A program made the translations under genes and the position numbers. 64,000 bases of DNA from Podarcis bocagei (taxonomy: Eukaryota): NCBI GenBank assembly GCA_964188305.1, contig OZ076885.1; one strand, 5' to 3'. Numbering within the stretch: position 1 is the stretch's first letter; each line of letters begins with the position of its first letter. Under the pieces are notes generated by a model that did no database searches, was not told the DNA's origin, and saw only the letters and a list, made by a program, of their open reading frames with translations. This document shows, piece by piece, positions 58,220 through 64,000 of the stretch.

Positions 58220-61200
58220 GTACAGTTCCTAGTCAGAACAAACTGAGAATGCACTATGCAGTGTCTCCTTGCCTGAAATGTTACGGGAAGCAGAAATCTG
58301 CATATAGTGTAGTCTTTTTTAAATTATTGATGGATATGTTTCCATTGAAGGAATTAAGAAAGTAAAATTGAGGAATTGCTATACAGTGGTACCTCGGGTT
58401 ACGTTACCTTCGAGTAGCATAATTTTGAGTTACGAACGCAGCAAACCCAGAAGTATATACTTCCGGGTTTCGCCACATGCACAGAAGCGGCGCCTCCGCA
58501 TATGGACTTTTCAGGGTAAGTATGGACCCTGGGACGAATTAAGTTCGTATCCGGAGAGTGCACTGTATTTATATGAGCAGGAAGCATCATGTATGATTGA
58601 ATGTGTGCACTTCACAAGATGTAAGATGTGTGCACTTCACAAGATGCACAGAACTGGGATTCCTGATCATCTCATTCTTCATTCATTAACAGAACACGTT
58701 TCTAGCCCTTGTGGTTGTGAAGATGTGCTTGAAAGTGAGCTTGCATCTGCAGGTTCAGAAATTTGGTATCGTGCAAAAGCATCTTTCCCTACATCATAGC
58801 CTCCAATAGTCCTTACTCCAGATATATATTTTAGTCCTTTCTTGCCACATCATTTTTTCAAAAATCTATTTTCCTGCTACTAAATTGTTCCCTGCCAAAC
58901 CATTTTAATGTCTTGTAAAAGTTGAAAAATGGGTACCCAATAAAACAATGTAATAGTGCTGCAGGGCAAATATGCATTATTTTAAATGAGGTGTGAACTT
59001 GGCTTGTAACATTCTTTCACAATTTGCATCTGGTATATAAGGATTTGTTTGACTTTTTGTGGGTGGCATGTATCTAACACTTTTATCTATATTTTGAAAT
59101 GAATATTTTAGATTTTAAAAACTATTTAGAGGTCTTTTGTTGAGTAAGTGGTATACAAATTTTGATGGATAAATAAATTCAACTTGTGCACAAACATAGA
59201 ATACATCTGTTCTTGGGATGCCGGTTCTTTAGAATGAAAGTGTACAGTCTATCTGGGTGGAATAGGGCTTGCCTTCATTTTCACTTTGGTTTTGTTCATA
59301 GCTGAAGGAGTCGAAACGAACAGTGAACAGCCTCCGAGATATTGTAGATGATGACGATGATCTTGAGAAGTTCAGCTGGAGTGGGGAGCCTGTGGGCAGT
59401 AAGTGGAGCAGAATGTTTTTGCATCTATCACCCATTCTTTGAATCTGAATTTGATTATTGCTGCCCACTGACAAGAAAAATCTCATTAGAGCTACAGTCG
59501 TTAGAGCTACACCTACTAGGAAATATGGCCTACTGAGGTTTAGTGTGCTTAACATTGAGCAGGAAAAGTGTCTAATGGTTTCATACATTACCACAATTGT
59601 TTATTTTGCCTGTTGTGTGCTTGAATTCCCCCTACCCGTTTCTGATAAGTGGAAAGTGTGCAAACAAGGCCAAACAAATGCAGGGAGTAAAATGACTGCT
59701 TCTTTCAAAAACAAGTAGATTGATGGTACATTATGGGGGGGGATCCAAACCATGGTGTGTTTTGTGAAAACCCGGCTTGTTCCTTCACTCATTCTTCACT
59801 ACTTACCCCAAATCCTGAGTGCATCATTCCTATGAGCCTCCCTATCAAAGAATTTCCCATGAAGGTAGTCTGTGCTTTGAATATTCCTGATTTTCCTGTT
59901 TTCCATGTGTTTTCCAAGAAAGAGAGTTTTTTAAATATCAAGGGTAGTTTAAGAGTTAAATGTCTCGTATGAGGTGATGATTTAGAAAAGCAAAACATAA
60001 GAACCAGGCCCAAAATCATGTATTCCAGAATCAATAACCCTTCTAGAATTTTAAAAGCCTCATCTTATGCTTGCTAGAGAATTTACTCAGATAGTGCTCT
60101 TTCTCTCTCTCTCTCCATAGGCATTTCCTGGTCAATCAAGGAGACCGCCTCCAGCAGCAACAATAGTGCTGAGGGAAGAGACTTGGGTGGGCAAAGAGGC
60201 TCTTCTTCATACGGAGCATTTCCCAAGCAAGCCTCTTCTTACTCACTGAGCAGCTTTTTCAAAGGTAGGACCTTTACTGGGACTTAGAATCACAGAATTG
60301 TAGAATTGGAAAGTACCCTGCAAGTTTTCTAGTCCAGCCCCCTGCAATGCAGGAATCCCAACTAAAGCATCCCTGACATCCAAGGAAGTAGAGATCACTA
60401 GCTGCCGAAGGAGTCCATTGCACTGTTGAACATCTCTTACCACCAGAAAGTTCTTCCTGATATTTAGTTGGAATCTCCTTTCTTGTAACTTGAATTCATT
60501 GGTTCAGGTCCTATCCTATTTCTTCCATGTGACAGCCCTTGAGATATTTGAAGATGGCTACCATATCCCAGGCTAAACATACCCAACTCAACCATTCCTT
60601 ATAAGTTACAGATAGGTAGCCGTGTTGGTCTGCCATAGTCAAAATAAAAAATTCCTTCCAGTAGCACCTTAAAGACCAACTAAGTTAGTTCTTGGTATGA
60701 GCTTTCGTGTGCATGCACACTTCTTCCTTCTGTTTCAGTGTATCTGAAGAAGTGTGCATGCACACGAAAGCTCATACCAAGAACTAACTTAGTTGGTCTT
60801 TAAGGTGCTACTGGAAGGAATTTTTTATTCCTGATAAGGCTTGATTTCCAGACCCTTAATGATCTTGGTCACCCTCCTCTGCATATGATCCAGCTTGTCA
60901 ATACCCTTCTTAAATTGTGACTCCCAGAACTGGACACAGTATTCCTAGATGTGTAATGGGTTTTCAGTGTGAGGTGATGAATCTAGCTTTCTTAGCCTTT
61001 CTTACTTGCTCTTTCTTTTCAGGAAGAAACAAACATGGGAGCTTTCAGTCACTTTCAGATGGTAAGAATCTAGATCTTTGTCCCCAGATTGCTTGAATGG
61101 TTGGCTTCTCCTTGCACAACAGTGGAAATTCGCTCCACTTTCTCCATTTCCCTGGCTAAAATTCTGACCATCTCTCTCCTTGAGTACTGCAAGCTGCTTC

Positions 61201-64000
61201 TTTCTGGCTTTCCCTTCCCACCACAGTACTTCCATATCTATTCAGAGCCCTACTTCCCAAACAGAATATATGGGAAGGTAGCTAACAGAGAGTAGCCTCC
61301 GAGATCATTATATAATTGTACCCTTGAAGCTGGCACTCCTTGCTCCCTTTTGGCTTTTAGAAAGAAGGTGATAAGTTGTGTTTGTTGCGGTTTAGTCATC
61401 CAGGATTTTCTTTCTAATGTTTTTACAACTTCTGGTTGTAACTGGTGCTGTTTTATTGTGACTTCATAATTTTGATGGTGCTTCTGTTTCAAATGCAGTG
61501 TTTTTGAGCTACTTGGTGGACCAAAATGACGTGGAAAGGAGGGCTCTAAATTGTGTGGGGGTTTTTTAAAAAAATGCTGTCGTTCTCTCTTCAGCTCTTA
61601 CAGACACAGGATTTAAAAGTTACGCCCCAGAACTGCGCAGACCAAAAGCAGACTATAAGGTAGGTATAATTTTGGAAGCCTAGATTCAGGACAACATTAA
61701 GGGGTGAAAGGGTTTGAAGCTGCAAACACTCCTCTTCTTCGCCCAAGGGCTGTCTTCTGGATGCTCACTCCACAGAGACTAGGGCTGTGATGCTGTGCAT
61801 GCTTATTTGAGTGTAAGCCTCATTGAACATACTTGGATGATGTCAGGAGGTTTACAGCACAATCCTGTGCAGGTTCCACTCTGTTCAAGTGGGACTTGCC
61901 CCCAGGTACTTGTTCACAGAATTGCTGTCTTAGAAGCTCTCTACCTTTAATAAGCAAGGAAATTCTCTCTAGTGGGTGGGAAAGGAAAGTGGGGAACCAT
62001 GCTCCTGCATTGTCCCTTTTCTGGAAACTGCCATCATAACAATGTATTAATTTTGTCCATTTAAATAATGGATAGCAAATCTCACTGAACATGTTGGCAT
62101 CAGGGACGACTAATGTGTAGTGGGCATCAACCTTTATTTTTTTACATTTATATTCTGCCTTTCATCCAGCCTGGAACCCAGGGTGGCTTACATGGGGTTT
62201 CCAGGCAGTCTCTGCACTGATCAGACCCAAACCTACTTTGCTTCTGCAGGGTGGTAGCCTCATGGGGCCTTCAGACCATACCCAGGGACCATGCAGCTCT
62301 TCAACTTTCTTTCACTGTCAGTGACCAGCGGCATAGCCTGGCACGATACACATTCAATTTTAAGCCAATCCTAATGCATGGCAGACCATATGCACCCCCC
62401 CCCCCCGCAGGCTTGCAGCCCTTTACTTGCAGAACATCTTAAATATGTCATCCCTCCCACAAAGCTGTCTTCACAGGCTGTGGCTGCTTTTATTGTGCTG
62501 TGTTCCAGACCTGTTTTGGGTGCTTTTGCGTGCAATACTAGTCGCAAATGACTCTCCTATGAGTCATTTGATGGGATGCAAGCAATGTTACTTCTGACAC
62601 CCTGCTGTTGGGGTATCTCAATCATACCTATAAGACGAAGGAGTTTGTCCGAATCTGTGCTTCTCAAAATATTTTGAGTGTTAAAGGCATCATGTTTTTG
62701 TTTTGTTACATTTCAGGATTACAGCAGTGACTGGAGCCCTAAAGACACAGTAAGACGGCTGCAGAGAGGCAAGGTGAGACTCTTCTTCCCTGCTTCTGAA
62801 AGGGCCAACCTTTGAATTTTTGGGTGGTGCTCCCATGCATATCCATTTCTTCTGCTCCTGCATGTCAACGCTGGAGATGTGGCTGTTGGTGGCTTTTCAG
62901 AGTTCTCTGTAAAGAACAGCCCTGTAATTTCCCTGTCTGAAAAGGAGGAGTTGAGGTCCTGCAAATGTCAGGAATGCCAGGGGATTATAGCAGAGGTAGC
63001 AGACTCTGCTCCATAATTGAAGCATGTCCCAAATGGCAAGGAATAATACGTTATTTCACTGACAGCTTTGGAGCAGGTATCCTGAGAAAGCATCCATAGA
63101 TCTGGTGCAGGGCTCTTGATGCTTTCCGTTGGTAGATCAAAGGGGAACTAAGTTATTTTTTGTGAATATAGAGGTAGTACACAAGCTGCTCCTGGCTGCT
63201 TTAGAACTGGCAATGAGCTGATATGCCACACAACATCTGTGTTTAGGAAACCTTTCTGTAACCTTTAGAAAGTGAATTCTTTGTTCCATTTTAGTCTTAG
63301 AGGTTAGGATGAGAAAATGGGGGTATAAGAAAGGAAAGTTCCCAGGGGCTATAAAGGCTCAGTTTCTGTTTAGTTTTTTATACCTACCACCCACTAATGC
63401 ATATTTCTTGATGGTTTAATTTCATTACCACCCACCAGTGCTCGATGGAAGGAGGATTCAGCTTGTGTCGCAGAACCCCCTACTGCCCACCTAGAATCCT
63501 GAAATGCCCACTAGTGGGCAGTAGGGACCAGGTTGACAAGCCCTGATTTAGACAGTGGGTTCTTAACAGAGACTTTGCGTAGTGATCTAAGGCCTGCAGT
63601 TGGGATAGAGTGACCAAAATTCTTTTTCTGAAAGAGGATTCCTGTTGTACAAATCCCCCAGTAAGGACTACCTTTCAGTGTGTGTATCTGCTCACATTGC
63701 AAATTCATGGATATAGAAGCACATGATAAGCTGTTTGTCTTGGTGGCTCAGAATAATTTTAATTGTGCCAAGACTACCACTCTGGCAACAAAGGCTTCCA
63801 TTGGTATATTTTGGCTCCTGAACCGCATGGAGAACAAATGACACATACAAATGATTAACCAACTGCAGCTCCTCTTCTGAGGAGTTTTATGATGAGCCAC
63901 CTGTGTAGCTGTCTGTCTGAAGCAGGCCTCCACTCAGATAATCCAGGTTCCTCTCTAATCCTTCCATTATTGTCATTCCGTTCTAGATCTGCTCACTGGA
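58127..64000 (+). CDS. VIPAS39: VPS33B-interacting protein (spe-39 homolog), 5' part: join(58127..58219,59302..59398,60121..60264,61023..61061,61595..61659,62717..62773,63987..>64000)
   Basis: [44 protein letters not shown]...[16 protein letters not shown]...YSLSSFFKG...[23 protein letters not shown]; GT-AG junctions with consistent phases; head-to-head with AHSA1. Confidence 0.92.
58384..58565. mobile_element. Tc1/mariner-like MITE
   Basis: ta|CAGTGGTACCTCGGGTTACG ... degenerate right TIR ending CACTG|ta. Confidence 0.7.
59302..59398 (+). CDS. VIPAS39: VIPAS39 coding exon 2
   Basis: [32 protein letters not shown]; catag| ... |gtaagt. Confidence 0.9.
60121..60264 (+). CDS. VIPAS39: VIPAS39 coding exon 3
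   Basis: [47 protein letters not shown]; ccatag| ... |gtagga. Confidence 0.9.
60606..60826. mobile_element. Penelope-like element remnant with inverted pseudo-LTR structure
   Basis: Perfect 84-bp inverted repeat (60643-60726 / 60746-60829). Candidate TSD attccttataag (60594-60605) / attcctgataag (60827-60838). Contains a hammerhead core. Confidence 0.75.
60740..60777 (+). ncRNA. Minimal type I hammerhead ribozyme motif
   Basis: GUAU-CUGAAGA-A-GUGUG(CAUG)CACAC-GAAA-GC-UC^-AUAC: stem I 4 bp, CUGANGA box, stem II 5 bp, GAAA box, palindromic AGCU stem III, UH cleavage site after 60773. Confidence 0.65.
61023..61061 (+). CDS. VIPAS39: VIPAS39 coding exon 4 (39 nt)
   Basis: [13 protein letters not shown]; long pyrimidine tract then cag| ... 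|gtaaga. Confidence 0.85.
61595..61659 (+). CDS. VIPAS39: VIPAS39 coding exon 5
   Basis: [22 protein letters not shown]; ttcag| ... |gtaggt. Confidence 0.9.
62132..62290 (-). mobile_element. 5S rRNA-derived SINE-like fragment
   Basis: Minus-strand gaagcaaagtaggtttgggtctgatcagtgc..agagactgcctggaaacccc aligns by eye to the 3' half of 5S rRNA (GAAGCTAAGCAGGGTCGGGCCTGGTTAGTAC...GAGACCGCCTGGGAATACC). An A-rich tail follows. Confidence 0.5.
62717..62773 (+). CDS. VIPAS39: VIPAS39 coding exon 6
   Basis: [19 protein letters not shown]; tttcag| ... |gtgaga. Confidence 0.9.
63987..64000 (+). CDS. VIPAS39: VIPAS39 coding exon 7 (start only, truncated by the window edge)
   Basis: ttctag|ATC TGC TCA CTG GA (ICSLE), the expected continuation. 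Confidence 0.75.

Follow-up and report, generated by a model that had tools for sequence, protein, structure and literature searches.

An intron of VIPAS39 carries a short head-to-head pseudo-LTR (pLTR) insertion of a young Penelope-like retrotransposon, likely formed when both strands of a staggered target cut each primed a cDNA; its hammerhead ribozyme is predicted to be locked in a hairpin and inactive. We give this reading a probability of roughly 0.8. The insertion lies in a 64,000-nt stretch of Podarcis bocagei DNA (contig OZ076885.1 of assembly GCA_964188305.1), referred to here as the window. The locus, which shows no sign of acting on VIPAS39, is an ordinary copy of a known kind, since the letters of the ribozyme occur about 8,000 times in the genome and its fold here is predicted to be inactive. 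As one of thousands of like copies it is minor in itself. The family to which it belongs is a dense record of a step that published papers call unresolved, namely the formation of inverted ends in Penelope-like elements and the role of the hammerhead.

Comparison of the two arms, at 60643-60726 and 60746-60829, reveals reverse complementarity at 84 of 84 positions around a 19-nt loop, as the preliminary description of this DNA had reported. The fold of 60580-60850 is predicted at -167.2 kcal/mol (z -23.5), and none of 200 shuffles was equally stable. Positions in the element are numbered below from the C of CUGA (window 60744), which is 0, so that -6 is 60738, -17 is 60727 and +29 is 60773. 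The left arm (60643..60726, minus strand) is a tailed pLTR copy, 5'-truncated at +2. The insert exceeds the arms because the left copy adds a one-sided Penelope tail of 37 nt (60606..60642, minus strand; element about +86 to +123), present on that copy only; the whole stub is about 220 bp and noncoding. The outer end of the tail would mark the first fixed start of reverse transcription. The right copy (60727..60829, plus strand) is tail-less and runs from -17 to about +85. It includes the loop, 19 nt of native element sequence that are absent from the tailed arm; a loop-spanning 30-mer occurs 4,687 times in the genome. The right copy is the same as a natural copy of the element (L062) except for one T fewer in the T-run, and its last ATT is common to the right target duplication. 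A MITE or other DNA transposon was considered and rejected: the tail is on one side only and the junction differs in every copy, in place of symmetric terminal inverted repeats and a fixed interior.

The insertion is flanked by a 12-nt direct repeat, also noted previously, at 60594..60605 (plus strand, beginning with ATT) and 60827..60838 (plus strand), with 11 of 12 positions matching. Two paralogs of the surrounding repeat (L205 and L206) are continuous through the insertion site and hold a single copy of the 12-mer, and the direct repeat is therefore a true target duplication. At the mismatched position both paralogs have C, the left copy in the window has T and the right copy has G; the mismatch is one later or repair-borne change, and argues against a very recent insertion.

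A minimal type I hammerhead is encoded in the right copy at 60740..60777 (plus strand). Stem I is formed by 60740-43 and 60774-77, CUGAAGA lies at 60744-50 and is followed by an extra A (60751), stem II (60752-65) is a 14-nt palindrome, and GAAA (60766-69) precedes a palindromic AGCU stem III, all on the plus strand, with the predicted cut after C60773 (+29). The letters and the cut site are as first described, and the sequence has every element of the minimal type I pattern: CUGANGA, GAAA, NUH, an extra base before 10.1, G10.1-C11.1, a palindromic helix III and a helix I of 4-5 bp. In the accessible text of PMC4209133, the minimal type I hammerheads of metazoan Penelope-like elements have the same core boxes, extra nucleotide (9/10.1), G10.1-C11.1 pair, short helix I and palindromic helix III. 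Helix II has 5 bp and a palindromic tetraloop in the window vs 7-8 bp in Schistosoma mansoni (PMC4209133). The same text describes minimal hammerheads that are paired on opposite strands at a spacing of 100-700 bp, and comparable motifs in turtle and snakes; unlike those pairs, the window has a full core in one arm only. The left arm, on the minus strand, begins at the G of CUGA and so lacks both the CU and the 5' strand of stem I, which agrees with the earlier remark that the opposite-strand copy lacks CUGA. The search with Infernal-type hammerhead models that had been proposed as a check gave a negative result, with no match to the Rfam hammerhead covariance models at E<=10. Such a result would be unsurprising for a motif whose helix III is unstable.

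Folding predictions for the ribozyme depend on its context. The 38-mer alone is predicted at -6.8 kcal/mol (z -0.44), with probabilities of about 0.7 for stem I and 0.98 for stem II, and stem III is unstable. With the left arm included, as the hairpin or as the whole intron, the predicted probability of both stem I and stem II is 0.00; 32 of the 38 positions in the ribozyme are paired with the left arm, and the duplex is predicted to form once transcription reaches 60760. For the right copy by itself (60727-60840), the probability of stem I is already 0.00 owing to pairing within the element. The 64-kb window has no further sense core with which a dimer could form, the other copy being antisense and without CU. 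Between two ribozyme copies, pairing through the stem II palindrome (60752-60765) is predicted at -25.2 kcal/mol vs -2.5 kcal/mol through stem III, and may bear on dimer formation.

The host gene was correctly named in the preliminary description. Some 4 kb downstream of the window lies an exon with 100% identity to lacertid SPE39 proteins, and a lacertid SPE39 protein maps to six exons within the window (58124, 59302, 60123, 61010-61063, 61585-61659 and 62711), although single exons compared with Pfam and PDB gave no match. The VIPAS39 (SPE39) intron holding the insertion is 60265..61022 (plus strand, GT..AG). Stranded RNA from a related species joins 60264 to 61023, with 17 and 21 reads in two runs and none in a third. 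In the three related-species RNA runs, of which 6-12% each was read, 60946-61001 is without cover and the hairpin reads are family-wide; no pile-up is listed at the cut site or at -6, in libraries of a type that shows ends poorly. The arm junction at 60718-60738, in VIPAS39 sense, is pyrimidine-rich and ends in CAG, a possible cryptic acceptor that is partly in the duplex.

Within the intron, the insertion splits an older repeat (60285..60945, minus strand), paralogs of which are unbroken at the site. This host repeat is of high copy number (4,789 first-look genome candidates, other copies being 70-86% identical over the main matches) and has very high DNA depth. Nesting in a repeat thus stands as first described, and the label CR1 is tentative: the repeat is putatively CR1-like, and the L206 paralog presumably retains a degraded ORF2-like frame. 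In four DNA runs from three related organisms, contigs break inside repeats, and joints that span the site may be derived from paralogs. Many stranded RNA reads map to 60470-60560 in the CR1-like sequence, and in two runs a single foreign flank dominates, which suggests one paralog elsewhere with high expression.

The parent family can be recognized from longer copies elsewhere in the genome. A search with the 224-nt insert gave 600 candidates, and 40 of 40 that were scored match nearly the whole hairpin at 92-100%. Many of 30 inspected loci continue upstream into a common sequence, in which a GIY-YIG endonuclease is encoded, its GIY-YIG motif being preceded by a C-x4-C-x2-C linker. Longer copies have a reverse transcriptase (RT) in the same open frame: the sister copies L061 and L062 match PF00078 and PF01541 above curated cut-offs, with some 190 nt from the end of the frame to the same ribozyme. 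At 19 of 20 loci the ribozyme comes after the ORF, and in L032 the pLTR and tail run into an ATG-started frame of 118 aa, a partial tandem. An RT followed by a C-terminal GIY-YIG, which characterizes EN+ Penelope-like ORFs, is therefore found on sister copies, the stub itself being noncoding; these copies join the same pLTR to a frame with RT, CxxC linker and GIY-YIG, and the Penelope-like origin proposed earlier is borne out. The 38-nt ribozyme has 7,948 exact copies genome-wide and a 29-nt piece of the tail has 6,302, compared with 0 for the controls of each. The family is young, since 40 copies match a 194-nt piece of the ORF at 100%. Many 5'-truncated copies among L061-L080 keep near-identical RT-endonuclease frames of up to 651 and 682 codons from stop to stop, partly flank, suggesting that the family is recently or still active. 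Copies with such long open frames make it a candidate source of active Neptune-type protein and of polymorphic lacertid markers.

A CX2-5CxxC linker between RT and endonuclease is common to Neptune and Nematis in the available portion of PMC8557442, and Neptune and Poseidon are found in vertebrates, according to the part consulted of 10.64898/2026.07.22.740005. As the host is a vertebrate, the frames suggest that the parent family is likely Neptune rather than Nematis. The parents described in PMC8557442 likewise have RT, a CX2-5CxxC linker and, at the C terminus, a GIY-YIG, and Neptune/Nematis-type EN+ insertion units (PMC8557442; Pen2a_Av, PMC3846280) likewise comprise a hammerhead pLTR, an inverted 5'-truncated copy, a tail of 30-40 bp at one end and a target duplication. 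Unlike the units seen in the accessible text of PMC8557442, the VIPAS39 copy is without coding sequence and the lizard arms mostly stop at the 5' edge of the ribozyme. The one-sided tail is itself known from PMC8557442 and PMC11167929, as far as their available text goes. A literature search returned no paper on this lacertid family, subscription papers, Repbase reports and supplements lying outside its scope; PMC4209133 in its reptile alignments and PMC11167929 in its figures may already contain a close motif or the same distribution of ends.

The form of the insertion across the family was determined in 90 of the first 100 listed tail matches, taken in order of position on one contig; three matches in one cluster and the last seven were left out, and one mis-fetched locus was dropped (n=89). 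This sample leans to young copies because an exact 29-mer was required, and it includes two head-to-head loci that share flanks (L087 and L102). An inverted tail-less arm is present in 67 of the 89 tailed copies (the script gave 68, one being a palindrome self-hit), and the hairpin is thus the normal insertion form of the family. The inverted partial pseudo-LTR of the earlier account is accordingly confirmed, as a right tail-less copy and a left 5'-truncated tailed copy in the window and as an inverted arrangement in the 67 sister copies. Of 68 sister insertions, 49 are flanked by target duplications of 12-15 nt. Outer ends are fixed in position, with the tail ending near +119 to +125 and the tail-less arm at +82 to +92 in 58 of 68, and the left end of the tail is nearly constant among 30 inspected loci. 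The inner ends vary independently (n=68): the tail-less arm extends further 5' in 35 insertions, the tailed arm in 15 and neither in 18, and the difference is sometimes hundreds of bases. The junctions between arms show microhomology and repeated templated pieces. In L103, L021, L026 and L030, short templated pieces are repeated at the head-to-head joint; such pieces are expected of iterative RT jumps or of polymerase theta end joining. L087 (G000:C1:494076) and L102 (G000:C1:1880257), 1.4 Mb apart, are the same insertion with the same flanks, each with its own mutations, and represent a segmental duplication after insertion.

The points at which the arms stop provide information on the RNA template. 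Among 157 arm ends, 68 are at -12 to -1, 41 at 0 to +20, and 3 at -13 to -50; another 26 are still further upstream, and 19 are beyond +20. Across the genome, a start at -6 preceded by a non-native pyrimidine is seen in 2,315 copies, and 54 start at the cut site with a non-native purine, compared with controls of 34 (+28) and 55 (+34), the count at -6 and the controls having been made with these different wildcards. In full pLTRs, an initiator-like TCAGT with its centre at -7 is preceded, at a distance of 30 nt, by a TATA-like box (-37). In the window, TCAGT is at 60735..60739 (plus strand), and the 2,315 copies begin at the equivalent of 60738; this predicted start is likely the 5' end of the element RNA. 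A TATA and initiator pair is reported for a rotifer pLTR (PMC3846280) and a TATA-less internal promoter for Drosophila virilis Penelope (PMC2377424), in the sections available. TG precedes -5 in 20 of 31 non-native junctions, with shared sequence of at most 2-3 nt, and this fits a 2-nt slip at the RNA end better than a spliced leader. A spliced template is not supported, as the exon end from the sole donor-like site (-145) is found in none of the 31.

Cleaved RNA was rejected as the template. Beyond the comparison of cut-site starts with their controls, 26 of 30 cut-site starts inspected are truncations, and 9 of them are joined through the ATAC microhomology of stem I. Four of 68 tail-less arms seemingly start at +30 to +36, of which only L122 is clean at +30. 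As arms stop just upstream of the ribozyme and there is no excess at the cut site, the templates were probably mostly uncut. The right arm in the window starts at -17, upstream of the proposed RNA start, and needs a longer transcript; ends in this zone are rare (3 of 157).

The perfect match between the window arms had been attributed either to a young insertion or to homogenisation of the arms. Arm pairs without substitution make up 31 of 60 that could be compared, the window included, and over +25 to +70 the arms are identical in 40 of 50 pairs. The remaining pairs have 47 changes in one arm only in 4,806 overlap bases, several of them at the CpG at +21/+22. These one-arm changes speak against homogenisation, which is not needed, as the youth of the family explains perfect arms; the young age is retained for the family. 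Five variants in 50 insertions are common to both arms, vs a shuffle mean of 0.24, a number reached in 2 of 20,000 shuffles. Both window arms have six T in the T-run in place of the usual seven, a variant shared from their source.

In L1 twin priming, reverse transcription is primed from both target strands, and the product has a 5' inversion within its target duplication. The L1 inversion derives from separate parts of a single RNA, whereas in the lizard family one stretch is copied into both arms and a perfect hairpin results. In the lizard family, the endonuclease would nick both target strands about 12-14 nt apart; priming would occur from one 3' end where the tail of the RNA ends (about +123) and from the other at the U-run (about +85), helped in the window by the shared ATT. 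Both cDNAs would run toward the RNA 5' end, mostly to just upstream of the ribozyme, and end joining would link their far ends head to head, with mostly uncut RNA of one source as the templates. In VIPAS39 pre-mRNA, the 84-bp duplex would then prevail over the fold of the ribozyme, and splicing of the intron would be normal. The reading of two cDNAs is suggested by the source variants that arms share and by the fact that either arm can be the longer; twin priming would in this case be read from its genomic products. A literature search by title or start of abstract, with subscription papers and Repbase reports outside its scope, gave no paper on Penelope twin priming.

The available text on Poseidon of Anolis carolinensis describes cutting and extension of both target strands with a preference for ATT, two internal RT starts that bound the tail, a predicted dimer, and insertion that does not need ribozyme cleavage (PMC11167929). 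The lizard family likewise has two fixed internal starts bounding the tail, ATT at the target and no sign of cleaved RNA as template. The ORF of the anole element starts in ribozyme stem II (PMC11167929), whereas the likely ORF start in the lizard family is about 130 nt downstream of CUGA (L032); in addition, the lizard protein has a CxxC linker, which Penelope and Poseidon lack. The balance of these observations leans slightly toward a fuller account, in which the lizard stubs record insertion by a dimeric enzyme that makes two strong-stop cDNAs from both cut strands, starting at two fixed sites on uncut RNA of a single source and running to the pLTR start, with a 2-nt slip that often adds TG, before head-to-head joining. 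If this strong-stop reading is true, inverted pLTRs are explained without antisense self-priming, and the hammerhead does not set the template's 5' end. For the in vitro system already described (PMC11167929), sharp predictions follow from the statistics of arm ends.

It is possible that a single cDNA or antisense template instead folds back and copies itself into the second arm, as proposed for rotifer Penelope elements from an antisense template in the part of PMC3846280 available. This would also account for source variants shared by the arms, and some junctions are exact palindromes or centred on the 14-nt stem II palindrome (L088, L100 and L111). A fold-back copy, however, cannot hold sequence missing from its template unless the loop is later deleted, and either arm can extend further 5' (35 vs 15), sometimes by hundreds of bases. 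In addition, both outer ends adjoin a duplication and correspond to two fixed positions in the RNA. We therefore regard self-priming as improbable relative to priming from both cut strands.

The hairpin has also been viewed in terms of its effect on VIPAS39. On a reading developed from the preliminary description, an active ribozyme would cut the VIPAS39 pre-mRNA, and the insertion is tolerated thanks to silencing by the antisense arm upstream. The pairing of that arm, transcribed first, with 32 of 38 positions and the fall of both stem probabilities to 0.00 are in keeping with this, as is the under-representation of tandem retrozymes in Xenopus introns in the portion seen of 10.64898/2026.07.22.740005. 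Any head-to-head insertion, however, transcribes its antisense arm first in either orientation, so masking is automatic in a family in which 67 of 89 copies have this geometry. Stem I is predicted to be unpaired in 60727-60840 even without the left arm. Furthermore, the lone S. mansoni minimal hammerhead gave no cleavage in vitro (PMC4209133, in part) and cleavage by the anole hammerhead needed the element's protein (PMC11167929, in part); with no dimer partner nearby, masking is probably redundant. Self-masking thus stands as a structural prediction and is not supported as the explanation of tolerance in VIPAS39: it would be a by-product of geometry, not an adaptation, and selected masking is very unlikely. 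Co-option of the hairpin as a dsRNA element that tunes VIPAS39 through A-to-I editing, small RNAs or a cryptic exon seems more improbable still. ADAR could plausibly act on a perfect 84-bp duplex in a sense intron, and the loop has the pyrimidine-rich CAG; yet the family is young with thousands of copies, and nothing distinguishes the VIPAS39 copy. All 23 Rfam hits to microRNA precursors fall below their gathering thresholds, and three RNA runs of a related species, which may or may not carry the insertion, list no joint at the loop acceptor (60738).

The VIPAS39 stub was also compared with non-LTR retrozymes, which are likewise hammerhead-bearing, noncoding and related to pLTRs (10.64898/2026.07.22.740005, available text). 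Retrozymes are direct tandem repeats that allow dimer cleavage in that account, whereas the stub is an inverted pair with a single core; it was therefore rejected as a retrozyme, which would have direct tandem monomers with a type I hammerhead in each. Beyond the shared tail, two main tail-end variants (56 and 27 distinct loci) mark subfamilies, and some copies extend about 6 nt past the tail end, a possible third start point.
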